Source: Candidatus Enterousia sp.
Lineage (GTDB): Bacteria; Pseudomonadota; Alphaproteobacteria; Rs-D84
Length of the DNA stretch: 64,000 nucleotides
Direction of reading: 5' to 3'
Assembly (NCBI GenBank): GCA_045613785.1
Contig: JAZLBQ010000007.1
Coordinates: 1 to 64,000 of the forward strand
Positions within the stretch are counted from its first letter, which is position 1, and every line of letters starts with the position of its first letter. Shown here piece after piece: positions 5,668 to 60,417 of this stretch. The notes under the pieces were generated by a model. The model was not told where the DNA came from. It did no database searches and saw nothing but the letters and a program-made list of their open reading frames with translations. The position numbers were made by a program, and so were the translations under genes.

Positions 5668-6930
5668 ATGGCGGAAAGGTTTTATCTTTGCATTGATTTA
5701 AAGAGTTTCTTTGCCTCGGTCGAAGCGGTTGACCGTGGATTGGACCCATTTACAACAAACCTGGTGGTGGCAGACCCGTCACGGGGGCGGGGTTCGGTCT
5801 GTCTGGCGATAACGCCGGCGATGAAGGCGTTGGGGATTCGCAACCGATGCCGGGTCTTTGAAATTCCGCGTGGGGTCGAATACATCACCGCCATGCCCCG
5901 CATGAAAAAGTATATGGAGGTATCCGCCCAAATTTACGGGATTTACCTGCGCTATATTTCGCCCGAAGACATCCATGTCTATTCCATTGACGAATGCTTT
6001 ATCGATATCACGCCTTACTTGAAAATGTATAAACGGTCGCCTAAAGAAATGGCGATAATGCTGATGGATGCAGTGCGGGACGAGACGGGCATATGCGCCA
6101 CCGCCGGCATTGGTACGAACCTGTTCCTGGCCAAGGTTGCACTGGACATCACGGCCAAGAAAGTTCCCGACCATATCGGATACCTGGATGCGGAATCATT
6201 CCGGGAACACCTGTGGCATCATCGGCCAATAACAGACATCTGGAACATCGGGGCGGGCATTGCACGGCGACTGGAAAAGTACGGTGTTTATGACCTGTAT
6301 GGTGTGACGCAGTTGCCGGCCGAAACCCTGTATAAAGAGTTCGGCACAAATGCAGAATACCTGATTGACCATGCGAACGGCATCGAGCCATGCACGATTG
6401 CCGATATTCACAATTATCAGGCGAAATCACATTCCCTGTCCAACGGCCAGATTCTGTTCGAAGATTATAACTTTGAAGACGCACAGATTGTGATGCAGGA
6501 AATGGTGGATAACCTGGTCTTGGAATTGGTGGAAAAGAATCTGGTGGCGGATGAGATATCGCTGGCCGTGGGGTATTCACGTGATGTTCGTCGCCCAACT
6601 GGGGGCAGTCGTAAATTGCCAGCGCACACATCGTCCTATAAATCATTGGTGGCGGAATTTGTGCACCTGTATCGGGAAACGACCGACAAACGCACGCCGA
6701 TACATAAATTGACGGTTGGACTGGGGAATCTGGTCGATGCGGATACGGTGCATCTGCAACTGGATTTATTTGCGGACACAACGGCGGACGAACGCGAAAG
6801 CAAACTGCAACACGCACTGCTGGATATCAAGGGAAAGTTTGGCAAGAACGCCGTCCTGCGTGGCATAAATTATCACGAGAAGTCCACTGGTCGCAAACGT
6901 AATACTTTGGTTGGGGGACACAATGGCTGA
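5668..6930 (+). CDS. Y-family error-prone DNA polymerase (ImpB/MucB/SamB, UmuC-like)
   Basis: CIDLKSFFASVE, YSIDECFID, GIGTNLFLAKVA motifs; clamp-binding QLDLF. Confidence 0.93.
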   Translation: MAERFYLCIDLKSFFASVEAVDRGLDPFTTNLVVADPSRGRGSVCLAITPAMKALGIRNRCRVFEIPRGVEYITAMPRMKKYMEVSAQIYGIYLRYISPEDIHVYSIDECFIDITPYLKMYKRSPKEMAIMLMDAVRDETGICATAGIGTNLFLAKVALDITAKKVPDHIGYLDAESFREHLWHHRPITDIWNIGAGIARRLEKYGVYDLYGVTQLPAETLYKEFGTNAEYLIDHANGIEPCTIADIHNYQAKSHSLSNGQILFEDYNFEDAQIVMQEMVDNLVLELVEKNLVADEISLAVGYSRDVRRPTGGSRKLPAHTSSYKSLVAEFVHLYRETTDKRTPIHKLTVGLGNLVDADTVHLQLDLFADTTADERESKLQHALLDIKGKFGKNAVLRGINYHEKSTGRKRNTLVGGHNG

Positions 6931-11756: not shown

Positions 11757-14700
11757 ATGTCACGTGATACACTGTCATTTGCATATAAAAAGCTGATTAA
11801 GAAAATTGCTTTCCTGTTTGTTTCGTTTGCCATGGTTTTTGTGCTTGGTGCGTCCAGCTCGTTCGCTGCGGGTTATTCGTGTCCAACGCCTAATAAGAGA
11901 TATACATCGTGTAACGCTGGGTATTATTTGACCAGCACCAGTAATGGTAATTCGTGTGCTGCATGTCCAAGTGGTTATACATCGGAAGGTGGTTCGACCG
12001 TTGGTCAGGAAAATGCGTGTTATTTCCAGACAACTGCTGGTAAGGTTGTTGAAACGGCGAATAGCGCGACACAAACAAACTGTCCTGCAACCAAATACTG
12101 CCCATCGCACAAGGTTTATTATGGCAAGATCAGTTCGCAGGTTTCTGGGGCGATTTTGGACTGTCCTGCGGCATCGGGGGCAAATGTTGATACGTTTAGC
12201 CAGATGTCAACATGGCCAGCGGCAGCGTTTCCTGATGCAACATCTTCAAATACAACGATTACTGCATCGTTATCCAGTTGGAAAACGGGTATCACAAGTA
12301 AGGCAAACTGTTTGGCGAATTATACCCTTAAGTGGAATAATGGTGGCACAGAGTTGCACAAGGATAGCGTTCCGTATAATGAATCGTTGGGTCGATATGC
12401 AACGGTTGTAAGCGGCACAGTAAAGGGTGATTTGTATATCTCTAAATTGAGTGCGGGATATTATTTAACCGAGGCATACAGTTCAACATACTGTAATACA
12501 ACAACAAATCCAAAGTATTATAAGAAGGCAGTTGCTTGTCCTGCGGGTAGTTACTGTCCAGGTTATACGTCAATGCCGTTGTGTTCAGATACATCACATA
12601 CGTATGGCAATGATATGGGTAATATTTCATGTACAACGGTGGGGGATGGAACGTATAAAAACTCGGCTGCAAAAAGTACAGCGGCATCAAGTTGTTATAA
12701 ATCCTGTACCAAGGCCTGCACACAACAGTCAACGCCAACTGGGGCGTATTCTGTGACGCATGGTAGCAGTTCGACATCTGGAACCCAGTATTATGGTGGT
12801 TCGTGTAATGCGTCTGCATCAACGTGTTCGATAACAGTAAACAGCTGTAAGTCTGGTTATTATAAAAACGGTAATGCATGTTCGTCCTGTAGCGGCCTTG
12901 GCGATGGGACATATACAAACTCAGCAGCGGGTAACTCTAGTGGGGCAAGTGCATGTTATAAATCTTGTTCGCAATACGATTCGGGTGGGTATCGCTATAC
13001 GCCAAAGGCTGCAACCGCATATTATAATAACACATGTCAGTATACATCAGCCTGTATAACACCATGTTCATCTGTTTCAAATACATCAAGCACCCAGTCT
13101 TGTTCCCGAGCTTGTTCCATTGCGAACGGGACATGTTCATACAGCGGTTCGACCCAGACATGTAATGGTAAATACACATCAACGGGTTGTTCGTCTGCTG
13201 GGGTAACTTGTTCTGGTTGTTCGTCGTGGGGAACGTGTTCTGGTGGAACGATTAGTATAACTTGTAATCCTGGCTATCATTTATCCAATGGTGCCTGTGT
13301 TGAAAATGATTATACCGTTGTCTATAATGCAAATGGTGGAACAGGAACAACAGCGTCCAGTTCTCATAAATATGCAACAGCCAAGGCATTGACAACAAAT
13401 GGATTTAGCAGAACAGGTTATACGTTTGCAGGTTGGGCAACATCTGCATCGGGCAGTGTTGTGTATTCAAATGGTCAAAGCGTTTCAAAATTGACAACCA
13501 CAAATAATGGGACGGTGACCCTGTATGCGAAATGGACTGCGAACACATTTACAATTAAATTTGATGCTAATGGTGGCTCTGGTTCCATTGCAGATAAAAC
13601 ATGCACTTATGACCAGGATTGTATCCTGCCAGGGCAAAGTGGACTGACAAAATCTGGTTTTGTTCTGAAAGAGTGGGTCTATCATAACAATTATGATAGT
13701 CCTCATTATAGCATTGGTCATAATATTAAAAATATCGTGACCAGTGGAACAATCACGATGAGTGCTATGTGGTTACGTGAATACACACGAATTATCCTGA
13801 ATGATAACGGTGGTTCAGGGGGCAGTGGAACAGTCTATCTGAAATATGTATCCGGTGGAACATCTATGACGCTGACAAACTCTAGCAAGAATGAAATATC
13901 CAAGGTTGCAATACCAACACGCACAGGATACACATTTGCCGGATATGAATATGATTGGTGTGAATTTGATACATATTGTCCATCAGCACCGGATGGTGTT
14001 CATGATTGGAGAACTATAATCGATAGCAATGGTTCGTATTCAGGTAATATTACGTATCTTGGTAATACTTCCGAATACTGGAATGCACGTGCAAAGTGGA
14101 CGGTAAATTCATATACATGTGCAGCAGGTAAGTATCTAAATGGAGCCACTTGTTCTACTTGCGAGGCAGGATATGCTTGCCCGGGTGGCACGTGGACATA
14201 TAATGGATCTGTTCAGGGACGCAGTTTGTGTTCGGGGACTGCGTATTCCGGTTCTGGTCAGGCGTCTTGCACATCGTGTCCAAACAGTGCAACGGGTTAT
14301 TATTCTTGGGACGGTGACACATTGCACGATTCGGTGTATGAGTGTTATAAAAACGTGACCTATACTGCAACCTATGGTTCTGGAACCCAGAATTGTTATT
14401 ACACCAGTGGTTCTGGAAGTAGTGCCGTTTATTCAGGTAACAGCAATGCAGGCTGTGATACAAAAAAAATAACATCATGTAAAGCAGGATATTATTTGGA
14501 ATCGACATCTAATACAGATTGCACGGCTGTTGGCAAAGGCTATTATTCTGGCGAAGGTTCAACATCCAGAACTGCGTGTTCAAATAAACCAGATAACTCT
14601 GACTATACCAGTGCAACAACAAATACGTCGTCATCATGTCCATGGACTTGTAATGCCGGGTATGTCGGTTCGTCCGCAAACGGTAATACATCATGTTCAA

Positions 14701-48501: not shown

Positions 48502-50733
48502 ATGGCAAAGGAAATTATTGAAAATATTGATTATCAGCAGTTGTCGGATGCATTGTCCGAACGCTATTTGTCTTATGCGGTCAGCACGATTGTATCCCGT
48601 GCGTTGCCTGATGTTCGTGATGGGTTAAAGCCGGTTCATCGCCGTATTTTATATTCGATGTTGCGTCAGAAATTGGCACCGAATGCTGCATTTCGTAAAT
48701 GTGCAACGGTGGTTGGTGACGTGTTAGGTCATTATCATCCACACGGCGACGCGTCTGTTTATGATGCAATGGTTCGCTTGGCTCAGGATTTTTCTGTTCG
48801 TTATCCTTTGGTAAACGGGCAGGGGAATTTTGGTAATATTGACGGCGATCCCCAGGCGGCATATCGATACACTGAATCCAAGATGACCGATGCTGCAATG
48901 TTGATTATGGACGGTCTGGACGAAGACAGTGTTGATATGATGCCTAACTTTGATGGCACAACGGTTGAGCCTGTTGTTATGCCTGGGGCGTTTCCGAATT
49001 TGCTGGCCAACGGTGGCATGGGTATTGCAGTTGGTATGGCGACAAATATTCCGACCCACAACGTGGCAGAGGTTTGCGATGCCTTAAACCTGGTAGTGGA
49101 CAAGCCTGATGCAACAACTGCCCAGATTATGAAAAAGATGGTCGGCCCTGATTTTCCGACAGGTGGGGTCCTGATTGACAGTTTTGATACCATTGTAAAA
49201 AATTATGACACAGGCAAGGGTGCATTTCGTATTCGTGCCCGCTGGGAAATCGAGAATCTGGAACGTGGCGGCTGGCAGGTTGTTATAACTGAAATTCCGT
49301 ATGGAATTGTAAAGTCCAAATTAGTTGAACAAATTGCTACATTAGTAGATGCCAAGAAATTGCCATTGGTTGATGATATTGTAGATGAATCAACGACTGA
49401 TATCCGAATTGTCATTACCCCGAAAAGTCGCAATATCCCTGCGGATAAAATGATGGCACACTTGTTTGCGATGACGGATTTGGAATATCGTTTTAATATG
49501 AATTTCAACGTCATAGATTCCAAGGGTGCACCACGTGTAATGCCGATTGGCGATGTTTTGCGTGAATTTGTTGCACATCAAAAAAATGTGCTACAACGTC
49601 GCACAAAATGGCGTTTGAATAATATTGCACGTCGTCTGGAAATCTTGGGTGGATTGCTGGTTGTATATCTGAATCTAGATCGTGTGATTGAGATTATCCG
49701 CAACGAAGACGATGCAAAATCTGTCTTGATGGCTGAATTTGAGTTGTCCGAAATTCAGGTAGAGGCAATATTGAACACACGCCTGCGTTCATTGCGTAAA
49801 CTAGAAGAAATGGAAATAAAGCGTGAAGACGCAGCCTTGCGTGCCGAGCAAGAAAAATTACAAGCATTATTGGCCAGCGAAGAAATCCAAAACGAACAGT
49901 TAAAGGTCTGGTTCAGTGATGTAAAAAAGCAATACGATAAAAAAACTGCACTGGGTCGTCGTCGCACAACATGGGCTGAACAAACCGAAGAAGTGGTTGT
50001 CAACGCAGACGAATTTATCGAAAAAGAACCTTTGACAATTATCTTGTCAACAATGGGCTGGATTCGTGCCGCCAAGGGACATTTGGATCTGAATTCATTG
50101 GATTTAAAGTTCAAAGAAGGTGATGAATTGCAAACCGCATTCCATGCCCAGTCAACCGATAAAATCAATCTGTTTGTTTCATCGGGAAAAATGTTTACAT
50201 TGTCTGCAAATGAATTACCGTCTGCTCGTGGATTTGGTGAATCTGTTCGAATGATGGCAGATATCGGTGCTGACGAAGAAATTGTTCAGGCATTTGTTCT
50301 GGACACTAATGCAAAATATTTGCTGGTTTCACGTCACGGCAATGGATTTATTATATCTGGTGAAAATTGCCTGGCTCAGACCAAGAACGGCAAACAGGTA
50401 ATGAACACAGAACCGAAAAATCCTGCCCATATGTGTGTTGTGGTGTCTGGGGACAGTATTGCAATGTCTGGTTCGAACGACAAGTTGTTGATATTTGCGA
50501 CCGACGAGATTCCAGAAATGACCCGTGGCAAGGGTGTAATACTGCAAAAATATAACGCAGAACGAACATTTGTCTTGGATATAATGTTCTTTGATGCGGC
50601 CGATGGTTTTGGATGGACGACGGGTCGTGGCACGACCAAGATGGAAGATTGGTCGCCATGGCGTGCCAAGCGTGCGTCCCAGGGTCGGACAGTTCCTGTT
50701 GGTTTTCCACGCAGTGGTAAATTCAGTAAATAA
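48502..50733 (+). CDS. parC: DNA topoisomerase IV subunit A
   Basis: RALPDVRDGLKPVHRR, YHPHGDAS, AAYRYTE; short CTD with no GyrA box. Confidence 0.93.
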   Translation: MAKEIIENIDYQQLSDALSERYLSYAVSTIVSRALPDVRDGLKPVHRRILYSMLRQKLAPNAAFRKCATVVGDVLGHYHPHGDASVYDAMVRLAQDFSVRYPLVNGQGNFGNIDGDPQAAYRYTESKMTDAAMLIMDGLDEDSVDMMPNFDGTTVEPVVMPGAFPNLLANGGMGIAVGMATNIPTHNVAEVCDALNLVVDKPDATTAQIMKKMVGPDFPTGGVLIDSFDTIVKNYDTGKGAFRIRARWEIENLERGGWQVVITEIPYGIVKSKLVEQIATLVDAKKLPLVDDIVDESTTDIRIVITPKSRNIPADKMMAHLFAMTDLEYRFNMNFNVIDSKGAPRVMPIGDVLREFVAHQKNVLQRRTKWRLNNIARRLEILGGLLVVYLNLDRVIEIIRNEDDAKSVLMAEFELSEIQVEAILNTRLRSLRKLEEMEIKREDAALRAEQEKLQALLASEEIQNEQLKVWFSDVKKQYDKKTALGRRRTTWAEQTEEVVVNADEFIEKEPLTIILSTMGWIRAAKGHLDLNSLDLKFKEGDELQTAFHAQSTDKINLFVSSGKMFTLSANELPSARGFGESVRMMADIGADEEIVQAFVLDTNAKYLLVSRHGNGFIISGENCLAQTKNGKQVMNTEPKNPAHMCVVVSGDSIAMSGSNDKLLIFATDEIPEMTRGKGVILQKYNAERTFVLDIMFFDAADGFGWTTGRGTTKMEDWSPWRAKRASQGRTVPVGFPRSGKFSK

Positions 50734-50763
50734 AAAATCCCCCGAAAAGGGGGATAATTTTTT

Positions 50764-50848
50764 TGGTGCGGGTAAGGAGACTCGAACTCCTATGGGTTGC
50801 CCCGCTGGAACCTAAATCCAGTGCGTCTACCAATTTCGCCATACCCGC
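50764..50848 (-). tRNA. tRNA-Leu(TAG)
   Basis: 85-nt cloverleaf GCGGGTATGGCGAAATTGGTAGACGC..., anticodon TAG. Confidence 0.96.
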
Positions 50849-50953
50849 AGCGACTAAAAAAATGATTGTTTTTATATTCTATGATAAATTTTACTTGATT
50901 TCCAGTAAAATTTAACCTAAAATCGGTCGCAGAATAATATAAAGGCGAATAAA

Positions 50954-51133
50954 ATGGCATCTAAAAAAGGTAGCAAAGAAGTAGTTCAGTTAAAAAATGC
51001 AGAAACTGGGGTCTTCTACATCACAACCAAGAATACAAAGTCTGAAAATACTCAGGGCAAAATGAAATTCCGCAAGTATGACAAAAAATTGCGTAAACAC
51101 GTAATTTTCACAGAAGCGAAAATGCCTCACTAA
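50954..51133 (+). CDS. rpmG: 50S ribosomal protein L33, Cys-free form (missing from the ORF track)
   Basis: Hand translation MASKKGSKEVVQLKNAETGVFYITTKN...KMKFRKYDKKLRKHVIFTEAK. Confidence 0.92.
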   Translation: MASKKGSKEVVQLKNAETGVFYITTKNTKSENTQGKMKFRKYDKKLRKHVIFTEAKMPH

Positions 51134-51287
51134 TATTTTCACAGACTTATTGGTGATAAAAAATCCTCCGATTGGGGGATTTTTATTTTTTTATAACCCG
51201 AATAAAAAAAATTTGAATAAAATATAAAAAATTGAAAAAAAAGACTTGCATTTATTCCGACAACAGTATAATATATACAACGCCCAA

Positions 51288-51364
51288 GGGGTTGTAGCTC
51301 AGTTGGTTAGAGCGTCTGCCTGTCACGCAGAAGGTCGCGGGTTCGAGCCCCGTCAATCCCGCCA
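51288..51364 (+). tRNA. tRNA-Asp(GTC)
   Basis: 77-nt cloverleaf, anticodon GTC, CCA end. Confidence 0.97.
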
Positions 51365-51568
51365 GGATTCACACCGTCGTCAGACGGTGTTTTTTTTGTA
51401 AAAAAAACGGGGCGAAGAAGCCGCAGGGTTCGGAACGCCAGTTGGCAAGAACAAGTGCCAACGCCGTTCGAGCCTTACGTAGTGAAAAGGGGCCCACCAC
51501 CAAAGTGGTGGGAATTTACAACCCCGTGGTCCCGCCAGGATTCACACCGTCGTCAGACGGTGTTTTTT
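51357..51568 (+). repeat. tRNA-Asp 3' end plus terminator duplicated around a palindromic insert
   Basis: 39-bp identity, 51357-51395 vs 51530-51568. Confidence 0.92.
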
Positions 51569-51634
51569 CTTGTTTATTATTTGAAAAAATGTTTTATAAT
51601 CTTCTTATCGAATATAGAACCAAAAGGAGAAAAT

Positions 51635-52063
51635 ATGAATTTCAAAGGTTTTGCAATTGGTGCATTAGCGTTGGCCTTGATGGGGTGTAATGATAATACA
51701 CAAAATCCAGAAGTCTTAAAGGGATTAAACTTTGTTTCTGCTCAACCGGGTGCAGATATAACAATCGCATTTGATCCAAATGAAATGCGTGTATATGGTG
51801 GTGTTGTAAATCGTTATAACGGTGGTTATACTGCCGATGGCGATAACATTAAATTCGAAGGCTTTGCATCAACAATGATGATGGGTGCACCCGAAGCGAT
51901 GGAAACCGAACAAGAATACTTTGAATTTATGCCAACTGTTGAACGGTATGAATATTCAGAAGGTAAATTGACATTGATTGCGACTGACGGCAAAGAAATA
52001 ATCTTTACCCAGGTTGAAACATTACCGGGCGAAGTTTCCGAAGAACAGCCTCAGGCACAATAA
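51635..52063 (+). CDS. META-domain (HslJ-like) lipoprotein
   Basis: Lipobox LMGC; VNRYNGGY, FASTMM. Confidence 0.85.
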   Translation: MNFKGFAIGALALALMGCNDNTQNPEVLKGLNFVSAQPGADITIAFDPNEMRVYGGVVNRYNGGYTADGDNIKFEGFASTMMMGAPEAMETEQEYFEFMPTVERYEYSEGKLTLIATDGKEIIFTQVETLPGEVSEEQPQAQ

Positions 52064-52094
52064 AAAAATAAAGGCAACAAAAACAAAACGCCAT

Positions 52095-53294
52095 TTAAAT
52101 GGCGTTTTGTTTTATAACTTCATTGACTATTGGTGCAAAATATATATAAATAGCACAACCAACCACCGCCAGCGTCAATAGGGCACAGATTTTCAGGTAT
52201 TGGTCTAAATGGTTTGTCTTTTGTTTTACCCAGTTGATAATATCTTGAATCCAAACACCAATCAACATACCCATAACAACATAGAATAAACCTGTTACAT
52301 ATATTTGTTTGGGATAAAAGAAATACCAGAAATTATGCCAGAATGCATGTTGGTTAAAATGTAAAAACCATCCGAAAAAAAACTGTCCCAGATAATAGAA
52401 AAAGTTTAACAGTGTGAATCCCAGAAAATGGTTAGCCATAATAGAATAAGTGCTATTAGAAACCTTATAGATTGTTGGGCTATTGCCAATAGCCGGGGTC
52501 AGCAGCCGTGCAATTCGTAACCAAAATGCGATTCCCAGTATTCCGCCCGCAAAAGCGATATAAGAATAAGTCCCCCATGCAACAGAACACGTAAAAGTTT
52601 TCCCCATCATAAGTATTAGTGCGATTTTAGTTCCAACGACAATTGCGAAGTATTTCAGGTTTGATAGATTGTCATATTTTTCTAATACGTTTTTATAGTA
52701 AAAACCTATGGCAAAAAATGGGATAAAATATAACAATCTAGCCAAAACCAAGTGATTTTTTGCGACCCCGATTTCAGACATATATGCACCAAACATCCCG
52801 ATTAAAATGCATAAAATCAAGTATATAAATTCGTGTTTAATCAAGTGTCTAGTTATTCGTCTGAACAAGACATAAAATACTTGGGTCATAAACAGTGGGG
52901 CAACAAACCACGTCGCAAGGTTATAATCAAATTGGTGACCGTTTGTTAGTGGTTCTATAAATAGTTTCGACAAGTCAAAAGCATGAGCATAAGTAAATCC
53001 ATTAACGGACAAGAACTGCAAGAGCAATCCATATGCAATGTTGTATAGGTAAAGAGGAATAATTAGAGTTTTAAATTTTTTCCAAATATACAACAAAGGC
53101 CTATCAACATTTTGTTCTTTAAAGAAATATCCCGAACAGAAAACAAAAAGAGCGATGTTAAAAATAAACAGAGGGAAAATTTCATGAAACAAAGAAATGC
53201 CGACACCGTCTGTTATATGAGAAATAATAACCAGAACGATTCCGATTGCATATAAAATTCTGAATTGTAAATTGTCTTTTTTTGTATTATCCAT
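52095..53294 (-). CDS. Acyltransferase-3 family membrane O-acyltransferase
   Basis: GIVLVIISH, FVFCSGYF, TWFV; about 10 TM helices. Confidence 0.85.
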   Translation of the reverse strand: MDNTKKDNLQFRILYAIGIVLVIISHITDGVGISLFHEIFPLFIFNIALFVFCSGYFFKEQNVDRPLLYIWKKFKTLIIPLYLYNIAYGLLLQFLSVNGFTYAHAFDLSKLFIEPLTNGHQFDYNLATWFVAPLFMTQVFYVLFRRITRHLIKHEFIYLILCILIGMFGAYMSEIGVAKNHLVLARLLYFIPFFAIGFYYKNVLEKYDNLSNLKYFAIVVGTKIALILMMGKTFTCSVAWGTYSYIAFAGGILGIAFWLRIARLLTPAIGNSPTIYKVSNSTYSIMANHFLGFTLLNFFYYLGQFFFGWFLHFNQHAFWHNFWYFFYPKQIYVTGLFYVVMGMLIGVWIQDIINWVKQKTNHLDQYLKICALLTLAVVGCAIYIYFAPIVNEVIKQNAI

Positions 53295-53449
53295 ATCTTT
53301 ATTATGATTATAGAGTTTATTATAATAAGATTTCAATCCTAAAATGATGGGGCAGGGGGTAAAAAAGAATAAAATCACAGATAAATACTTGACAATCAAA
53401 TAAAAACTATGTATAATTTGCCAGCGTTCGATATGAACAAGGCAGTTTT

Positions 53450-53525
53450 GGCCCCATCGTCTAGAGGCCTAGGACACCGCCCTTTCAAGGCGAGAACACC
53501 GGTTCGAATCCGGTTGGGGCTGCCA
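53450..53525 (+). tRNA. tRNA-Glu(TTC)
   Basis: 76-nt cloverleaf, anticodon TTC, CCA end. Confidence 0.96.
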
Positions 53526-54795
53526 AAATAAAATGACCATCCTTGCGGTGGTCTTTTTTATTTTGAATCAGCGGTCCCAACCGGATGCGCCCGAGTGCCG
53601 GCAGAAAACGCAGTTTTCGTGGGCGTCGCCCACAGGCACGCATGGCGAATACGCAGATAGATAATTAGCAAACCCGCAAAAACGGATATGTTTAATAGAG
53701 TTTTTGTGTCTAGGTTTGGTTATTGTATATCAAGGGGCGAAGTTGGGGCTGCCAAAATAGATAAAACCGCATTTTTGCGGTTTTTTTTTATTGGTTTTGC
53801 AATACTTTCAGCAGTTCGTAAGTTAGGTGTTGAAAACACATGCCGTTTTGCTGACTTACGAACTTTTAAAAAGAAAAGGTTAGAAATCTAACCTTTTTCT
53901 TTGTTCAAATTTATTGTGGGCATTATTCGTTTTCTGATTGAAACAATCGATTGGCGATAATCTTATTTGTATATTTTTCTTTGATTTTATTTATACCAGC
54001 ATTAAAACCACCTCGTAAATAAAGGTTTTCCATTTGTTGATATGTTTTTATATTGTCATATTCCGATGGCTCTAAAATGGCACTTATTACATAGTCTTTT
54101 TGATTGTGCCCGACTGCATCAATGTTTTCACCAACCTTACAAATGCCATCTATTTGTGCTTTTTCGTAAGTTTTTCCTTTCCCAGGGTCAATCATATGCA
54201 AACCGTCTGATAATTTTATTGAAACAAGTTGATGACCGTCTATCATTTTGCCTGAATTTTTATTTTTAATATCTTCTTTTTTTGCGGTAGCAATAATACT
54301 AAAATCTTTTAATCCAATTTCTTGTGCGTATTTAGAAAACAATTTAGCGCGCCCAGTGCACCCCGCAGCATTATATGGAATTTTTTGTTCGACAATATCA
54401 TCGCCAGATAATGAAAAATTAAAATTTTTATGGTCTGTTATTTCTGGGTGTTGTTCAAAATATTCATCACGAGATATAGCATTTTTCAAAGATGGTTCTA
54501 TATCATGAAAAAAATCATCGATTTTTTGCAGTACAATATTTACTTTTTCAATAATATCTTTATCTGTATTTGTCATAGATGAATTATAGCACGAAATTAA
54601 CAAATTTGCAAAAATACCTTAACTTCTTTCCCAAACATCAACAATTCGTGTATTATATCTGCTCGCAAATTGCACAGATGGGGCTGCCAGAATAGATAAA
54701 ACCGCATTTTTGCGGTTTTTTTATTTGTTTACTTTGCTTTTCTGTGGTTTGTAAGTCAGGCGGTAAAAACTATATCCGTTTTATCGACTTTTAAT
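53513..54795 (+). repeat. Three copies of the tRNA-Glu 3' end, each followed by a terminator; copies 2 and 3 share ~120 bp
   Basis: GTTGGGGCTGCCAAAATA at 53513 and 53742; 53744-53787 vs 54679-54722 match at 43/44; homologous downstream palindromes. Confidence 0.9.
53923..54576 (-). CDS. Transglutaminase-like (Cys-His-Asp) hypothetical protein
   Basis: GCTGRAKLF, GHQ, MIDP; leaderless promoter. Confidence 0.6.
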   Translation of the reverse strand: MTNTDKDIIEKVNIVLQKIDDFFHDIEPSLKNAISRDEYFEQHPEITDHKNFNFSLSGDDIVEQKIPYNAAGCTGRAKLFSKYAQEIGLKDFSIIATAKKEDIKNKNSGKMIDGHQLVSIKLSDGLHMIDPGKGKTYEKAQIDGICKVGENIDAVGHNQKDYVISAILEPSEYDNIKTYQQMENLYLRGGFNAGINKIKEKYTNKIIANRLFQSENE

Positions 54796-54803
54796 CTTTT
54801 CGA

Positions 54804-56186
54804 TTAAAGATATATTTCTTTATCTGTTTTTATGTTTCTGACAAACATTTCATCATGTGATACTAGTAATATAGCACCAGTATATTGATTCAAAGCTTCT
54901 TCTAATATCCCAATGCTTTTGATTTCAAGATTATTAGTTGGTTCGTCCAAAATCAATAAATCTGGTTGATTGTCACCGCCAAGAATTGTCGCTAATGTTG
55001 CTTTTAATAATTCTCCGCCAGATAATGTTCCAACCTTTTGTTGTGATGCGTTTCCACGAAAACCAAAGTTAGCCGCAATCGCATGAGCGTCGTGCTTAAG
55101 ACAATCTGAGATTTCTACGATATTTTCAATGATGGTTTTATTTTTATCTAAGACAGATAAAACTTGATCGACATATGCTATCTTGCCAGATGTTTTAACA
55201 GTTCCAGATTCTGGTTTTAACTCGCCACGAACGATTTTTAACAGTGTAGATTTTCCAGAGCCATTTTTCCCAACTAGTCTTACCCTTGATTTGCCATACA
55301 TGGTAAAATCAAAATCTTTAAATACAGTTTTATCTCCATATGCAAAGCATAAGTCAGATATATTTATCAATTCTTTACTGTAAAAGGATTTGTTGGGTAA
55401 AGGAATTTTTATCGTTTCATTTCGCATTTGTTCAGACAAAGATTGTTGAATCGATATTTGTTCGTTTAATTTCTTTTGAATAATTGCACGCTTTTTTGCT
55501 TCTGTTTCTTGGCTTTTACCTCGAAGAGCATTTGCGGCTATTCGGCTTCGTTTAGAATTGTCGATTTCTTTATGTTGTTTGAATTCATGGTGTTGTCTTG
55601 TATTTTGGGCAATATTTATTGTATTATTCAATCTAGCAATAGATTTTTGAGCGTTAGTATATTTGGAATATATATTGTCTTGCTCTATTCTTTTTTGTTC
55701 TAGATAGAAATCATAATTACCGCTATAGACTTTTAATTGTCCATTATGTATTTCAATTATTTTTTCCATTTGTTGTAAAAGTTCCCTGTCGTGTGAAACG
55801 ATAGCGACCCCGTGCGGATATGTGTTCAAACGGTCAAAAAATATCTGTTTTGCATCTGTGTCTAAATTATTAGTTGGTTCGTCCAACAGTAAAACATCTG
55901 CGTTAGATTCAAAAGCCCGCATAAGTGCAAACATTTGTTGTTCGCCACCACTTTTGGAATCTGATACATTTATTTGATTCAACAGGTAAACATTTGCATT
56001 TTTGTGAACTGTGCCAGAATCAGGCAATAAATCCCCACTCAACAACCGTAGTAGGGTTGTTTTTCCCGAACCATTATCGCCAATAATTGCCACGTGTTCT
56101 TTGTCATTAAACACGACAGAAATACCGTTCAATAAATTATTATTGTTGTATCCGAAAATACACTTTGATAAAGAAATTAAAGCCAT
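54804..56186 (-). CDS. ABC-F family ATPase, candidate ribosome-protection protein
   Basis: Two NBDs (GDNGSGKT, GKNGSGKS; SGGE; LDEPTNNL; VSHD), helical linker, no TM segments. Confidence 0.88.
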   Translation of the reverse strand: MALISLSKCIFGYNNNNLLNGISVVFNDKEHVAIIGDNGSGKTTLLRLLSGDLLPDSGTVHKNANVYLLNQINVSDSKSGGEQQMFALMRAFESNADVLLLDEPTNNLDTDAKQIFFDRLNTYPHGVAIVSHDRELLQQMEKIIEIHNGQLKVYSGNYDFYLEQKRIEQDNIYSKYTNAQKSIARLNNTINIAQNTRQHHEFKQHKEIDNSKRSRIAANALRGKSQETEAKKRAIIQKKLNEQISIQQSLSEQMRNETIKIPLPNKSFYSKELINISDLCFAYGDKTVFKDFDFTMYGKSRVRLVGKNGSGKSTLLKIVRGELKPESGTVKTSGKIAYVDQVLSVLDKNKTIIENIVEISDCLKHDAHAIAANFGFRGNASQQKVGTLSGGELLKATLATILGGDNQPDLLILDEPTNNLEIKSIGILEEALNQYTGAILLVSHDEMFVRNIKTDKEIYL

Positions 56187-56187
56187 A

Positions 56188-56282
56188 ATAAAACCCTTAT
56201 ATTGCAATCGAGTAGACACATATTTCTATGTGCGATTTATCAAAAATTACAATATTACATACACATCGGGTTTTATCCTTTG
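56188..56282 (-). promoter_or_regulatory. Putative translational attenuator with uORF MCM*
   Basis: AAAGGA...ATG TGT ATG TAA (56266-56255); 9-bp inverted repeat 56188-56196/56268-56276 pairing the two RBS regions. Confidence 0.55.
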
Positions 56283-56384
56283 TTTATATTACACACACAA
56301 ATTGTATTACAAATATTGGTAAAATCAAGCTTTTTCTCTAAAAACACCTTATTGTCTTTTGCAAATAGCAACGAGTTATTTTAT

Positions 56385-57128
56385 CTACTGTATTTCAATT
56401 TGGTCTATATCGACCAGCAGCCGATTTATCTCACGGCAAAGGTGTTCAAACTCTGGCTTTTTCTGATATGTGTATTCGTCCATATACAGGCTACGCTTTA
56501 TTTCAATCATAAATGAAATAACATTGGGATTATTTTTATAATAGCGTCCAGGGACGATTGAGCCTGCAAAAGGTTCGTTTACTCCATATGACCAGCCATT
56601 TCGCACACAGAAATCTGCTATCTTGTCAAAAATTATCTTGTTGTAGTGAGGATGTTCATAACCAATGCAAATATCTGGCTGCTTGTCAGTTTGTAGGCCT
56701 ATGCGATAGCTAGAAGGATAACTGTGCAAATCAATTATGATTGCATGATTATTGCAGGCCAGTGATTTATGTGTAATTGATTCTAATAAATTATGATGTG
56801 GGTAATAAAATTTATCCAGTAATTCCTGTCGTAGTTTTGCATCAGGGCTATGTTTAATAATTTTCCCAGAACAAGAGTGAGTATATATAACCCCCATACC
56901 ATATTGGCTAGCAGGTTCATCTTGGTCATCAACAAATCGTTCTGTATCAACGACTAGTCTGGATATTGGGGCGACCAGTTTGATAAATCTGGGATTGTCA
57001 AAGACCATTTCATCGGTATAAAGATCCGCCAGTTTATAGGCTTCGCTAGTTGCTTCTTCTATATCGCAAATGAACAAGTCTTGAAAATCGAGTTTTACAG
57101 ACGAATGAGGAATATTTACTATAATCAT
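56385..57128 (-). CDS. N-formylglutamate amidohydrolase family protein
   Basis: IPHSS, DLYTD, SRLVVDTER, YYPHH, IDLHSY, NEPFAG, IEIKR. Confidence 0.9.
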   Translation of the reverse strand: MIIVNIPHSSVKLDFQDLFICDIEEATSEAYKLADLYTDEMVFDNPRFIKLVAPISRLVVDTERFVDDQDEPASQYGMGVIYTHSCSGKIIKHSPDAKLRQELLDKFYYPHHNLLESITHKSLACNNHAIIIDLHSYPSSYRIGLQTDKQPDICIGYEHPHYNKIIFDKIADFCVRNGWSYGVNEPFAGSIVPGRYYKNNPNVISFMIEIKRSLYMDEYTYQKKPEFEHLCREINRLLVDIDQIEIQ

Positions 57129-57321
57129 ATGATTGTCCTTGTTTGACTTTACTAGTTTATCATCTCTTTTTACTGTTGCAAGATTTGTTCGTTTAAATAT
57201 TCTTATCTGGTTGATTTTTTTGTGTTTTTCTGGTATAATAGACCATACAAAGCGGACGGTTTTTTGCCGTCTTTTTTATCCCTGCCAAGGCAGGGCTTTT
57301 TTATTACCCAAGGATTTTATA

Positions 57322-57825
57322 ATGATAATAAGCAACAAAGGAATAGAATTGTTAAAGTGCCTAGAGGGAGCGGTCAAAGTCCACGGCCGACACGTTATAT
57401 ACGACGATGCAACAGGTCGTCCAATTTGTCCAGGGGGCATATTGCCACCTGGTGCAACAATCGGTTATGGGCATCTGATAACGCCCGAGCAAGATTTTTC
57501 AGACGGCATAACAGAAGAGGTCGCAACAGAATTGCTGCGTTCAGATATTGCACAAGCAGAGCAAGTGGTTCAAGAAAGTGTCAAAATTCATTTAATGCAA
57601 AATCAGTATGATGCGCTGGTATTACTGGTGTTTAACATTGGTGGTGGAAACTTTCGAAAATCAACTGTTTTGAGATATATAAATAATCCGAAATATCGCA
57701 GTGTAAAATACCCAACGTTGTCTGATGCGTGGCTGGCGTGGAATCGGTGTCGTGGTCAGGTTGTGCCAGGGTTGACCAGACGCAGGCAGTGTGAACTGAA
57801 TATTTATTATGGAAAACAGAACTAA
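57322..57825 (+). CDS. GH24 phage-type lysozyme
   Basis: GIELLKCLEG, TIGYGH, QNQYDALV..VFNIG, GLTRRRQCE. Confidence 0.92.
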   Translation: MIISNKGIELLKCLEGAVKVHGRHVIYDDATGRPICPGGILPPGATIGYGHLITPEQDFSDGITEEVATELLRSDIAQAEQVVQESVKIHLMQNQYDALVLLVFNIGGGNFRKSTVLRYINNPKYRSVKYPTLSDAWLAWNRCRGQVVPGLTRRRQCELNIYYGKQN

Positions 57826-57912
57826 GTTCTTGTGATTTATGGTTGACAAAATTCGGTTATGTCCTATAATGTAAGTGTGTAAATAATCATATAAACTAAC
57901 GGAAAAGGCATA

Positions 57913-58152
57913 ATGAACAACAGAGAAATAAAAGATAAAAGCCAAGAAAAGTTTAAAATAATGGAATCTTTTAACAAAGCCTTTCTTAGTGTTTTGACTG
58001 CAGGTGGTGTTGCTATATCAACGCTGGCGTTGCTGACTCAAAAGCCAAATTCAGATCTGATGTTATTGATTGGCATATGGTTTACGGTTGCTGGTGCGGG
58101 TGGTATTTTATCTGATTGTATAACAAAACAGAAAGACCAAAGAATGCGTTAA
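57913..58152 (+). CDS. Small two-TM protein ending QRMR
   Basis: Two hydrophobic helices; own TTGACA-17-TATAAT promoter. Confidence 0.7.
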   Translation: MNNREIKDKSQEKFKIMESFNKAFLSVLTAGGVAISTLALLTQKPNSDLMLLIGIWFTVAGAGGILSDCITKQKDQRMR

Positions 58153-58172
58153 CTATGATACAGGGGACAAAG

Positions 58173-59195
58173 ATGGCATCAAAAACAGCAACGGATGTTG
58201 AAAAATACTCTATATATCAGCAATTTAAGTCCGAACAAGGGCTTGAAAACGTTTATGCAACGATTGATGATTTGAAAACAATAATCTGCAAATTGCAGGG
58301 GTATCTGAATTTTATAAAAAGTCAGCCTGGGATTTCAGATTCCAAGAAAGAATTATTGTATGGTTTGGCTGTAAATGATTTGCCGCCAATAATTCAGTTT
58401 ATTATGAAAATGTATGAGCCTGAAATGTTTGTCAAGCGTTGTAGTCATGCAATAGCAGTAAACAAATTTAGACCAAAAGACCTATCTTTGCTGGATTTGG
58501 TTGTTCATCCTGATTTATTTCACATTCGTGGTCAATTTTCAACATTTTCCAGGGATCTGACTGATGCCAGAACACAAAGCAAAACACCGGATGAAATTCG
58601 AAGTCTTATAGTCTCGAAGATATCCAATATGACGGAGGTTTCGGAAATACTGACCAAAGAATTTATTAAAGCGATAGAAACACGTTCTGGTTTCCAACGT
58701 CGTCTGATTGCAAGTTCAAAACCAGACCGATTATTATGGGGGCAATTCCTTCAGGAAGTTGCTAGTGAAATAACAAAAAAGCTTGGTGTAAAACAGGAAG
58801 TTTTTGTTTGCTGTGTTCAAGAATGGGGGGCAGGTGCTGGTGTGCCAGAAGATTGTTTAGGGAATTATTTTTTAGCAGGTAACACGAAACTATCAATGAT
58901 TGTATTAAACCTAAATAATTTGTCATGTGTAGCATCTCGCAAAGGGGGCGAGGGCTTCTTTATTCGGTTTAGGATGTTTGTCGAAGTTTGTGTTGCATTT
59001 CTGCATGAGTTTTCTCATTTCTTGGACGACAGGTGTCCAGATTGTTCGGCACTTGGTGCACAGAAAAGCTTTGTTGCAAAACGCTATTATGATTCTAACA
59101 GCAACGTATATTATGACAATCCGACCGAGGTTTCTGCTCATATTGTTGGCAATTTGTTGCGTAAAAAGATGATGGAACGTTGCTTCGGAGATTAA
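58173..59195 (+). CDS. Hypothetical protein with an HExxH metallopeptidase-like motif
   Basis: LHEFSHF...YYDNPTEVSA. Confidence 0.65.
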   Translation: MASKTATDVEKYSIYQQFKSEQGLENVYATIDDLKTIICKLQGYLNFIKSQPGISDSKKELLYGLAVNDLPPIIQFIMKMYEPEMFVKRCSHAIAVNKFRPKDLSLLDLVVHPDLFHIRGQFSTFSRDLTDARTQSKTPDEIRSLIVSKISNMTEVSEILTKEFIKAIETRSGFQRRLIASSKPDRLLWGQFLQEVASEITKKLGVKQEVFVCCVQEWGAGAGVPEDCLGNYFLAGNTKLSMIVLNLNNLSCVASRKGGEGFFIRFRMFVEVCVAFLHEFSHFLDDRCPDCSALGAQKSFVAKRYYDSNSNVYYDNPTEVSAHIVGNLLRKKMMERCFGD

Positions 59196-59220
59196 AAAAA
59201 AACGCCAGTTTTGGCGTTTT

Positions 59221-60417
59221 TTATCGTCCGTGAATATGTTTGCTAAGTTTGCCTGCCATTGCCCCAACGCCTAACACCGAAAGCGTAATCAAAACCAAAT
59301 ACCATCGCAAGGCTGCAAATCCACCAAATACTCCGATATACATCAGTCCTGTAAAACCAATCCAGCGTCCAATGAACAGTGCGAAATCACGGAAAACAAA
59401 GTATTCTATTTTATGGTTTTTTGTCACACATTTCGCATTTGATAAACTGTAGATACAAACCCCGTTGATTAAATCAATCAATATAATTGCTGTTGAATAA
59501 ACGAAATTATAGACCAAGAATGTTGCAGGAATTGTTTCGGACAAGAAAATCGTCATTGCCACAATTGTTGCCAGCATTGCCAGGCTAAGCACATATGGAT
59601 ACGATTTTTTGCGTCCCCATCGTCCAAAAGCCCACGACGTAGCGATTGAAAACATTGCGAACAGTGTTGTAAAAATGCCCAAATTTAAATCTGTCTTGAA
59701 CATATAGACCGTCCACATCGTTATAACCGTTCCCAACAAGCCAATGCCAAATCCACGCATAATTTCCATTGTGAACATTTTACGAATAACCGGAAAACGC
59801 ATCATACACTTAAAGAATCCGACAAAATCCACGGGTGTGCGACTTCTGTGGTGTGAAGGGGATAAAAATAGACTAAGTATAAATTCAACAATGGTCAGCC
59901 CCAATATTGCGTATGCCATTTCCGTATAAGAGCCTGTATCAATAAAGAATCCCAATACAACAGGTGCTAATATTTTAACAATATATACAACTGTATTTTT
60001 TACACCGATAAATTTATTCATAACATTTGGTGTGGCTTTTTCGCCAATCATTGCGTTCATTGGCAGGTGATACATCGCAGCCCCAATTCCAAACAACAAC
60101 CCCAGTGGAATAACATATTCAGCGACATTATTTTTTAATCCGATTATCAGCAACAACAAAATAATTTTAGGAACTAAATTCAGTTTAAAAACGGTTGTCT
60201 TGTCATACTTTTTGCACCAGTGGGCAAATGCAAAGAATCCAGCACAGGTTGCAGCGTATTCGAACAATTTATACATAGACACAGAAACGATTTCATTTGC
60301 AGACAACTGCATAATAAAAGAAACCAAAAAAGTCCCAAAAAATAAATCTGATACATTTCGCAAGCCTGCAAAGGCCGCCAATAACCGTAAGTCTGCTGAT
60401 AATTTTTGATGTTTCAT
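59221..60417 (-). CDS. MFS-like transporter
   Basis: 398 aa with about 12 hydrophobic segments. Confidence 0.8.
   Translation of the reverse strand: MKHQKLSADLRLLAAFAGLRNVSDLFFGTFLVSFIMQLSANEIVSVSMYKLFEYAATCAGFFAFAHWCKKYDKTTVFKLNLVPKIILLLLIIGLKNNVAEYVIPLGLLFGIGAAMYHLPMNAMIGEKATPNVMNKFIGVKNTVVYIVKILAPVVLGFFIDTGSYTEMAYAILGLTIVEFILSLFLSPSHHRSRTPVDFVGFFKCMMRFPVIRKMFTMEIMRGFGIGLLGTVITMWTVYMFKTDLNLGIFTTLFAMFSIATSWAFGRWGRKKSYPYVLSLAMLATIVAMTIFLSETIPATFLVYNFVYSTAIILIDLINGVCIYSLSNAKCVTKNHKIEYFVFRDFALFIGRWIGFTGLMYIGVFGGFAALRWYLVLITLSVLGVGAMAGKLSKHIHGR

Follow-up and report, generated by a model that had tools for sequence, protein, structure and literature searches.

A tRNA-Glu-anchored array of integrase-less gene cassettes in Candidatus Enterousia and a candidate large serine recombinase

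Introduction

How do single genes come to be stacked behind a tRNA-Glu gene, between copies of the tRNA's own 3' end and with no recombinase beside them? The question is raised by positions 53,450 to 56,186 of a 64,000-nucleotide stretch of Candidatus Enterousia sp. (assembly GCA_045613785.1, contig JAZLBQ010000007.1, positions 1 to 64,000 of the forward strand), hereafter the window. The genus belongs to the order Rs-D84 and has genomes under ~1 Mb (PMC12306168). A sequence-only reading of the window had taken the locus for a candidate new, integron-like gene-capture system, in which a recombinase acting in trans inserts ~1-kb cassettes serially at tRNA ends. We analysed the locus together with its counterparts in related genomes. 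Our analyses suggest that an accretion island anchored at the tRNA begins here, with integrase-less cassettes for which a large serine recombinase (LSR) probably acts in trans and which homologous recombination reshuffles. We give this reading a probability of roughly 60%.

Three copies of the tRNA-Glu 3' end partition the locus

The tRNA-Glu(UUC) gene, with encoded CCA, lies at 53450..53525 on the plus strand (ARAGORN; Rfam tRNA model, 56 bits), behind a promoter-like site TTGACA-17-TATAAT (53389..53417, plus strand) that agrees with the consensus at 12 of 12 positions. The final 11 nt of the tRNA gene, TGGGGCTGCCA (53515-53525, plus strand), form the attachment platform and the first copy of what we call the core. 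Repeat comparison revealed two displaced tRNA-Glu 3' ends on the same strand, core copy 2 at 53744..53754 and core copy 3 at 54679..54689, so that exact copies of TGGGGCTGCCA occur three times in the window (53515, 53744 and 54679). When one mismatch was allowed in the 10-mer GGGGCTGCCA (the core minus its first T), the window held seven matches against 2.18 expected, a number reached by 0 of 100 shuffles. Copies 2 and 3 are nearly identical, as had been noticed, with a measured figure of 45 of 47 nt in place of the 43 of 44 given earlier. The 32-nt stretch common to both occurs only twice in the window (expected 0.00), and the 26-nt pattern of core plus 15-nt right flank, with up to three mismatches, has just two sites in the 1,044,118-bp assembly (26 contigs, 96.5% complete). 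A terminator-like hairpin follows every core copy (53535-53553, 53763-53784 and 54698-54719), which bears out the threefold pattern of tRNA end and terminator first seen by eye; the surrounding 3.2 kb holds nine terminator-like sites against 1.8 expected.

The cores bound three pieces: a non-coding element of 229 bp, a cassette of 935 bp that carries a gene for 217 aa, and a cassette with an ABC-F gene. An intact tRNA-Glu is thus followed by direct repeats of its own 3' end that bound blocks of foreign DNA, which is the layout of a tRNA-anchored serial-integration island. No recombinase is encoded in the window, as the sequence-only reading had stated for the neighbourhood.

Both cargo genes face back toward the tRNA, again as described. 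The first (53923..54576, minus strand) encodes the 217-aa protein, which matches no Pfam family and has homologues with 33-36% identity in the arrays of two relatives. The name "transglutaminase-like" has a language-model look-alike score of 0.93 as its sole basis, and a papain/transglutaminase-like fold may be taken as a lead only. The assignment of the second gene held. It encodes a 460-aa ABC-F ATPase (54804..56186, minus strand; two Pfam ABC_tran domains and ABC_tran_Xtn) that scores 378.3 bits on NCBIfam model NF000355 against a cut-off of 380, and by this score it would stand close to a ribosomal-protection-like ABC-F family. Orthologues with 74-82% DNA identity are found at the far end of relatives' arrays.

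Each junction combines a core with conserved left-hand and right-hand modules

Alignment of copies and nhmmer searches defined a conserved 84-nt left-hand junction module, PRE3, at 54606..54689 on the minus strand, the only copy in the source genome. Read on that strand, it forms a frame of 28 codons, WQPHLCNLRADIIHELLMFGKEVKVFLQ, the first four of which span core copy 3; the consensus on the gene strand is likewise 28 codons long, WQGHLCNSRTDFIHDLLLFGKEIKVFLK, with codons 1-4 equal to the core. For 66 distinct copies of nearly full length, column entropy at the three codon positions was 0.67, 0.51 and 0.82, and stops numbered 4 in frame 0 against 69 and 171 in the other frames. By these measures the variation of PRE3 is codon-like, with the stop counts partly a consequence of the consensus alone.

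PRE3-linked cores in relatives mostly read TGGCCCTGCCA, not the TGGGGCTGCCA of the tRNA. This variant, TGGCCCTGCCA, is partly palindromic (TGGC...GCCA) and exceeds by one base the core found at the distal end of the LSR elements described below. Co-variation between core and host tRNA is mixed: at one locus (L072) the PRE3-linked core equals the end of the resident tRNA-Glu(ctc), and at another (L060) two cores fit neither tRNA.

A cassette promoter, TTGCAA-17-TATAAT with TG, is predicted at 54583..54611 on the minus strand, its -10 box ending 7 nt before the ATG at 54576 and its -35 box lying inside PRE3. An extended -10 element (TGnTAnAAT) within 45 nt after PRE3 accompanies 36 of 86 copies, and in 26 of these its offset is the same; at a control offset the count drops to 1 of 86. 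Each gene cassette therefore reads as a predicted self-contained expression unit, composed of an upstream terminator, the core, PRE3 with the promoter, one gene, and a palindrome with terminator.

The right-hand module, unit2, occupies 53755..53920 and was delimited by repeat, fold and terminator scans. It comprises a bidirectional terminator (53763-53784), a palindrome (53806-53871) and a hairpin/terminator (53873-53898) that ends the 217-aa gene. Comparison with relatives gives its order, rightward from the core, as A-rich stretch, bidirectional terminator, spacer, palindrome and hairpin. The palindrome arms (53806-53826 and 53851-53871) are 21 nt long and 81% complementary, and the DNA fold of 53741-53920 has z = -6.0. 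A second unit2 (54690..54803; repeat and terminator scans) repeats the terminator identically at 54698-54719 and continues into the palindrome that ends the ABC-F gene; this copy, after 54722, is shorter and degenerate. The palindrome reported after core copy 2 and its degenerate version after copy 3 were therefore both recovered. In a recurrent short form of unit2, seen at junctions of loci L064 and L069, ~59 nt are missing between the terminator's left stem and the loop of the palindrome. A short direct repeat, CCCGTTT / CCCATTT, marks both ends of this gap, which may be a repeated deletion.

Between the tRNA and core copy 2 lies a non-coding, GC-rich mini-element (53526..53743, plus strand), recognized by its GC content, RNA fold and homologous modules in relatives. 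Besides the terminator at 53535-53553 and hairpins, it contains a degenerate tRNA 3' end in inverted orientation (53572-53586) and a tail that is AT-rich and promoter-like. Its GC fraction is 0.49 against ~0.30 in adjoining stretches, and the predicted RNA fold of 53556-53760 (-77.8 kcal/mol, z = -5.0) would be closed by the inverted copy pairing with core 2. Modules homologous to it come after tRNA-Glu in many relatives. An Rfam search of 53000-57000 (E <= 1) returned the tRNA and two sub-threshold chance matches only, with no family for the mini-element.

Arrays are widespread in the genus and vary in cargo

Of the sampled genomes of the genus, roughly two in three have such arrays, as marked by PRE3 (78 of 121 and 150 of 233), with up to 11 copies per genome. 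Two of 38 sampled genomes from other genera of the family carried PRE3 (1 of 8 and 1 of 4 in the two genera with a match), and none of 29 genomes from other families of the order did. A nhmmer search of 37 stretches, namely 36 loci of relatives and the window's own, gave 90 copies in 32 stretches, with a median spacing of 966 nt (interquartile range 795-1475) and no locus with copies on both strands. tRNA-Glu heads the array in 28 of these 32 loci, in one relative orientation throughout, two of them having tRNA-Glu(ctc); at the remaining four the contig end was reached or the fetched stretch held no such tRNA. At least nine consecutive cassettes stand on one contig (L053). Another (L055, G118:C16) has two tRNA-Glu(ttc) genes 7.6 kb apart (6722-6797 and 14358-14433), each heading its own array, with an ABC-transporter operon between them.

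Cargo, mostly one gene per unit, differs from locus to locus. It includes GNAT acetyltransferases, HAD hydrolases, cytidine/dCMP-type deaminases, a histidine phosphatase (His_Phos_1), a PNP_UDP_1 phosphorylase and adenine deaminase, and further NERD nucleases, beta-barrel outer-membrane proteins (OMP_b-brl), a GDSL lipase, a protein kinase, MFS transporters and ABC-F proteins. A blastp comparison among the first 131 array open reading frames (ORFs) and six from the window left 73 singletons. Alignment of the locus across relatives, the check proposed with the sequence-only reading, thus found differing cargo between conserved junction modules. Some array cassettes are inverted.

Recombinases are rare in the arrays. 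Two loci have a small, Mpi-like serine recombinase at the far array end (L018 32-628 and L027 2412-3029; "master DNA invertase Mpi", 260.7 bits against a cut-off of 272), and beyond these none was found in 147 scanned ORFs (of 266 called) from 20 further loci. Elsewhere, a 196-aa frame with a Resolvase-domain match lies ~1.2 kb from PRE3 copies (G095:C126).

Cassettes with 95.7% and 94.7% identity were found in genomes whose anchor flanks beside tRNA-Glu agree at only 69.9% and 74.3%; across 83 pairs the flanks have a median identity of 72.5%. By this comparison, cassettes have evidently been transferred between species.

Unrelated modules meet at the core

We typed 200 distinct junctions by the sequence to the left and right of CTGCCA, the part of the core common to all of them. 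Left types were the tRNA body, PRE3, postB (the tail of the non-coding element) and miniM (the tail of a second mini-element); right types were unit2, a mini-element starting with an inverted tRNA end, the 3' end of the LSR gene, a CTATGAG-element, and other sequence. The tRNA body was joined to unit2 in 23 junctions, to a mini-element in 20, to the LSR 3' end in 6, to the CTATGAG-element in 0 and to other sequence in 4. For PRE3 the corresponding counts were 53, 23, 3, 10 and 39; for postB 7, 3, 0, 1 and 2; and for miniM 2, 2, 0, 1 and 1. Directly after tRNA-Glu or a core, unit2 was thus present in 85 of the 200 (23 tRNA, 53 PRE3, 7 postB, 2 miniM).

Mutually dissimilar modules thus adjoin at the same 6-11 nt. 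An HAD cassette shared by three genomes illustrates this: its near-identity ends right after CTGCCA, where three unrelated sequences begin. Since 6-11 nt is too short for homologous recombination, joining at the core would be site-specific, and the enzyme must then act in trans. We take the core junctions as pointing to a footprint of site-specific recombination. Block ends elsewhere, namely past the terminator, around PRE3 position 42 and within the loop of the palindrome, fit homologous recombination and provide evidence for a probable second layer of module shuffling.

Closest to the window is a contig from sequencing run X4 (depth 135, a few differences per kb from the window), which joins 53781 to 54716 and skips 934 nt; it therefore represents a near-identical strain without exactly cassette 1. 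The proposal that breakpoints fall at the repeats agrees with both observations, the X4 break lying inside the repeat and unrelated modules meeting at the tRNA-end core. With conserved modules, varying cargo and the X4 strain taken together, the description of ~1-kb, mostly single-gene, integrase-less cassettes stacked at a tRNA end with repeats as boundaries was upheld.

A strain lacking cassette 1 would also be expected if that cassette were a chimera of metagenome assembly, joined through the 45-nt repeat, and relatives' contigs do often break inside arrays. The same architecture, however, is embedded in long contigs from many genomes (293 kb and 353 kb in two examples), and the array biology would hold even if cassette 1 came from a co-resident strain; we regard a chimera as extremely improbable. 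Runs X3 and X6 gave no cover over 53840-54541 and no contig across the gap, and are uninformative. One joint in X3 that goes back 897 nt (54770 to 53874) was considered as a circle or tandem copy and rejected as too weak: its depth is 2.3 and its side 32, with 35 foreign letters in the middle, and its source may be the array of another organism.

The source genome encodes XerC- and XerD-like recombinases only

The sequence-only reading had suggested a search of the genome for an orphan tyrosine or HUH recombinase. No Resolvase, PF07508 or Y1_Tnp match was obtained in the source assembly, and the two tyrosine recombinases found, both on other contigs, are XerD-like (NF001399, 298.9 bits, over the cut-off) and XerC-like, so that no orphan enzyme of either kind emerged. 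On integron-integrase models the two score 110 bits against a cut-off of 265 (TIGR02249) and 61-66 against 435.

These scores bear directly on the integron-like account, in which a dedicated recombinase would recognise the folded palindrome as attC and insert single cassettes at the tRNA end as attI. The cassettes do resemble those of integrons in being mostly single-gene, ~1 kb long and co-oriented (0 of 32 PRE3 loci with both strands), in carrying a palindrome after the gene (fold z = -6.0) and in having no integrase in cis. Yet no integron integrase is present, the palindrome module follows only 53 of 128 PRE3 junctions, and breakpoints fall at the core or terminator and not at the palindrome. 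Its arms, judged by eye with no attC model run, misfit the R''/R' attC consensus RYYYAAC/GTTRRRY, and the cassettes have their own predicted promoters and a terminator each. An integron-like mechanism is therefore very unlikely, and that part of the sequence-only reading was not supported.

Host XerC/XerD could instead move the modules, as proposed for pdif modules or Xer-exploiting elements: XerC-/XerD-like proteins are the only recombinases found in the source genome and in many array-bearing relatives, and the partial palindrome of TGGCCCTGCCA (TGGC..GCCA) would suit such enzymes. We noticed no dif-like 28-bp site in the modules, where no formal search was made. The core is a tRNA end, and it is demonstrably used by an LSR; both facts argue against Xer, which we hold to be a highly improbable agent.

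A large serine recombinase of relatives uses the same core

The LSR of relatives is exemplified by a 521-aa protein (L029 8848-10413) with matches to the Resolvase catalytic domain PF00239 (4.9e-18), which is N-terminal in this enzyme class, and the zinc-ribbon domain PF13408 (4e-09); the PF07508 "Recombinase" domain was not among its matches at E <= 1e-4. Nine of 121 genomes have orthologues with at least 55% identity. At all eight loci with context, the gene runs into tRNA-Glu(ttc) and overlaps its 3' end by ~38 nt; the ninth contig ends at the gene. The last LSR codons double as the terminator hairpin of the tRNA. The elements that carry it are 5.3-7.5 kb long and are terminated by a displaced core.

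Past that distal core the LSR frame continues in five elements (L029, 8848-10413 plus 2854-2991; L166, L167, L168 and L170) as a conserved tail, LAA[HQ]..N.N..[IM]..[EQ].I.IAE.L.D.D..[LI]Y, and the LSR gene therefore spans attP. Integration would accordingly swap a C-terminal tail of 35-65 residues for ~12 residues read antisense of the tRNA. At two loci (L166 and L168) tRNA-Glu is followed first by the LSR element and then by an older mini-element with a PRE3 array, the order expected if newcomers displace older units away from the tRNA. The last 40-68 nt of the LSR gene adjoin PRE3-core in four array loci (L021, L055, L056 and L070), and remnants like these are present in another four. That relatives might have larger, recombinase-bearing elements at the same core had been named beforehand as an outcome that would speak against a new category of gene capture, and their presence leaves that claim unsupported.

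A 67-aa, Met-initiated frame runs through the LSR 3'-end remnant (in another frame), the core and PRE3 in three loci (L055 5733.., L070 4948.. and L159) and reads M..LYHK..KKSILYF.PP.P.GF.IKNP.K.T.NQIWQG...FGKEIK. The PRE3 frame can be aligned by eye with the LSR tail, which we treat as a lead only. The idea that PRE3 is the split-off tail of a long gene was tried and rejected: no long frame holds it in 301 genomes of the order (maximum 137 aa), and among 76 metagenome-contig occurrences at most 67 codons lie upstream of the core. A weak search, with the window copy as its only query, found no longer proteins with the PRE3 frame in a set of 5.8 billion proteins, and the PRE3-core pattern had 0 matches in viral contigs.

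In 9 of 10 fetched loci, a second, commoner LSR family points toward a tRNA 3' end in convergent orientation, eight times at tRNA-Ser (~1.0-1.2 kb away) and once at tRNA-Tyr (141 nt). Recombinases at tRNA 3' ends fit the duplicated tRNA-Asp, -Arg(cct), -Pro(tgg) and -Ala(ggc) ends of the source genome.

Serial accretion followed by homologous reshuffling is the preferred reading

Our preferred reading runs as follows. The tRNA-Glu 3' end TGGGGCTGCCA would be the attachment core, at which foreign DNA was joined at least three times. Each joining would have rebuilt the tRNA end and left a core copy and terminator further downstream. An LSR on elements of 5-7.5 kb may have made or moved the recombinase-less cassettes in trans; we infer that such a trans-acting LSR is the best candidate for the enzyme, the indirect evidence being the shared core and the LSR 3'-end remnants beside PRE3. 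The source genome would now be without such an enzyme, and its array would change only through homologous recombination between junction modules and the uptake of related DNA.

Several findings weigh against this reading. The source assembly has no serine recombinase and no LSR homologue. Arrays are not enriched with the LSR (PRE3 in 5 of 9 LSR genomes against 78 of 121 overall), PRE3 is still present in 16 of 20 genomes with no Resolvase-family match at all, and neither the Resolvase family nor extra tyrosine recombinases show any association with arrays. Profile comparison of the PRE3 frame with LSR tails gave an hhalign probability of 0.07, and PRE3 never lies within a long open frame (137 aa and 67 upstream codons being the maxima given above). 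LSRs recombine attP with attB and are not known to act on attL or attP-like sites, so the stacking or movement of single cassettes would need relaxed specificity or re-creation of attB. The X4 joint falls inside 32 identical nt right of the core and fits homologous recombination, as do the block ends away from the core. No supported circular junction was found in the run contigs, where rare excision products could not show.

Much of this would be accounted for if there were no site-specific step at all. The junction module would then be a portable regulatory or homology block, the core a part of the duplicated tRNA terminator region, and arrays would change by homologous recombination and unequal crossing-over. 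The varying ends of shared blocks, the X4 deletion joint, the arrays in genomes without a Resolvase-family match, and in many with just two tyrosine recombinases, all agree with such an account, and so do the predicted promoter carried by PRE3 and the PRE3[2-42] stubs kept before genes. Against it stand the 200 junctions, in which left-hand and right-hand modules of no mutual similarity adjoin at a common 6-11 nt, a match too short for homologous recombination; it offers no route for new genes to enter between modules; and the LSR elements use that same core. We consider homologous recombination as the only process unlikely, and retain serial accretion at the tRNA end with an LSR in trans as the better explanation.

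An extension of this accretion model is tentative and, in our view, rather doubtful. Enterousia might have a working functional analogue of the integron, run by a serine recombinase, with tRNA-Glu as platform and ~1-kb cassettes whose attP-like PRE3-core-terminator junction doubles as an insulated promoter. The LSR would act in trans, the swap of its tail could set the direction of the reaction, and PRE3 would be the fossil, or the still translated alternative tail, of a second such enzyme.

One further candidate role for the core, as the primer-binding site of tRNA-primed reverse transcription, was rejected: the predicted product is colinear with the existing array, and nothing new would be created.

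The far end of the array and tRNA ends elsewhere in the genome

The distal array end lies at 56187..56384, with no PRE3 or core upstream of the ABC-F gene (nhmmer, which finds one PRE3 in 50001-60000; Pfam). Ordinary genes follow, an N-formylglutamate amidohydrolase-family gene (FGase, 56385-57128) and an adjoining lysozyme gene (57133-57825). A phage-type lysozyme gene recurs just past the far array end in several relatives (L030, L058, L066 and L067).

Layouts similar to that of tRNA-Glu had been suspected at tRNA-Thr, -Ser and -Asp. The case of tRNA-Asp was borne out: at 51288-51568 of the window, tRNA-Asp(gtc) is followed by a 173-nt GC-rich non-coding element that ends in a second tRNA-Asp 3' end (51522-51537), and one 31-nt terminator stands after both ends (51365 and 51538). 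This element is of the same family as the mini-elements behind tRNA-Glu in relatives. At tRNA-Ser only the start of a mini-element is present, with no second tRNA end, and at tRNA-Thr nothing was found within 12 kb at up to one mismatch in 12 nt. Elsewhere in the source genome (G000), duplicated 3' ends lie a short way downstream of tRNA-Arg(cct) (C12:54429-54504; two tandem 121-nt units), tRNA-Pro(tgg) (C3:56530-56606; +188) and tRNA-Ala(ggc) (C7:85558-85633; +71). The mini-elements at those tRNAs carry a common motif, ...CGTAGTGAAAGGGGCCC...GGGAATTTACAA, followed by the host tRNA end.

Discussion: comparison with known systems

It is already known that integration repeated at one tRNA can leave behind partial copies of that tRNA together with decayed elements. 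Tycheposons of Prochlorococcus integrate at a few tRNA genes, are separated from their neighbours by a partial tRNA copy, and push older elements inward as newcomers arrive (10.1101/2020.12.28.424599). The same islands are filled with degenerate remnants and extra partial tRNAs, and 910 of 937 elements carry a tyrosine recombinase (10.1101/2020.12.28.424599). This precedent takes away the general novelty that the sequence-only reading had claimed. As there described, the likeness covers the few tRNA targets, the partial tRNA copies, the displacement of older units inward, the remnants and a host with a small genome. Tycheposons differ in their tyrosine recombinase and in the replication modules and kilobases of cargo that many of them carry. 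The Enterousia units, in contrast, are ~1 kb in size, hold a single gene and no recombinase, share a conserved ~250-bp junction with its own predicted promoter and terminator, and have an LSR as the only enzyme tied to their core.

An LSR that works at the 3' end of a conserved gene brings the array close to the staphylococcal cassette chromosome (SCC). SCC elements use the large serine recombinases Ccr at a site in rlmH (orfX), and ccr-less pseudo-SCC elements stand in tandem arrays. Both systems combine a large serine recombinase, a core at the 3' end of a conserved gene, tandem arrays between short direct repeats and recombinase-less members that depend, in Enterousia putatively, on the enzyme in trans. 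Here, however, the target is a tRNA, the cassettes are ten times smaller and the LSR frame crosses the core. The LSR is also only distantly Ccr-like, scoring 66.7 bits on CcrB against a cut-off of 900, 45.6 on CcrA against 700 and 28.5 on CcrC against 900, and the likeness, drawn by analogy, would concern nothing but the mode of action.

We do not count the locus as an integron. It shares with integrons, and with attC clusters that lack an integrase, the co-oriented, mostly single-gene cassettes, a palindrome after the gene, arrays without an integrase in cis and small accessory enzymes such as GNATs. It differs in having no IntI, in palindrome arms that misfit the attC consensus by eye, in the tRNA-end core as breakpoint, in the predicted promoter and insulating terminator of each cassette and in its tRNA platform. 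Integron cassettes are mostly promoterless and are read from a common Pc promoter, whereas here a terminator stands at each junction and a promoter is predicted after PRE3.

Two further comparisons concern parts of the system. The pdif modules of Acinetobacter plasmids are likewise small, have no recombinase of their own, are bounded by short sites and are exchanged between replicons; theirs are inverted XerC/XerD sites on plasmids, whereas the Enterousia units are bounded by direct tRNA-end repeats in the chromosome. In the SSV-type integrases of archaeal viruses the recombinase gene also spans attP, and integration separates part of its frame; those enzymes are tyrosine recombinases split near the N-terminus, whereas the serine LSR exchanges only its C-terminal 35-65 residues.

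The available parts of the literature on Enterousia, integron-like tRNA arrays, LSR/tRNA attB sites and tandem tRNA islands yielded no earlier description of such cassettes, and the accessible text of one Enterousia paper contains none of the strings "integr", "mobile", "cassette" and "recombin". The array matters as a case in which a genome-reduced, uncultured gut lineage concentrates much of its gene flow at one address, one gene per unit, including a ribosomal-protection-like ABC-F. With its compact conserved junction, the system is easy to spot in metagenomes, and a bench test would need no more than a single recombinase, tRNA site and junction. For the LSR class, the combination of a tRNA target with a frame across the attachment site is unusual, and of interest for mining genome-engineering enzymes. 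Set beside these known systems, the Enterousia arrays appear to be new in form: gene-sized cassettes without a recombinase, a ~250-bp junction that would serve as attachment site, terminator and promoter at once, a wide presence within one reduced-genome genus of gut Alphaproteobacteria, and a putative link to an LSR whose frame crosses a tRNA-borne core.

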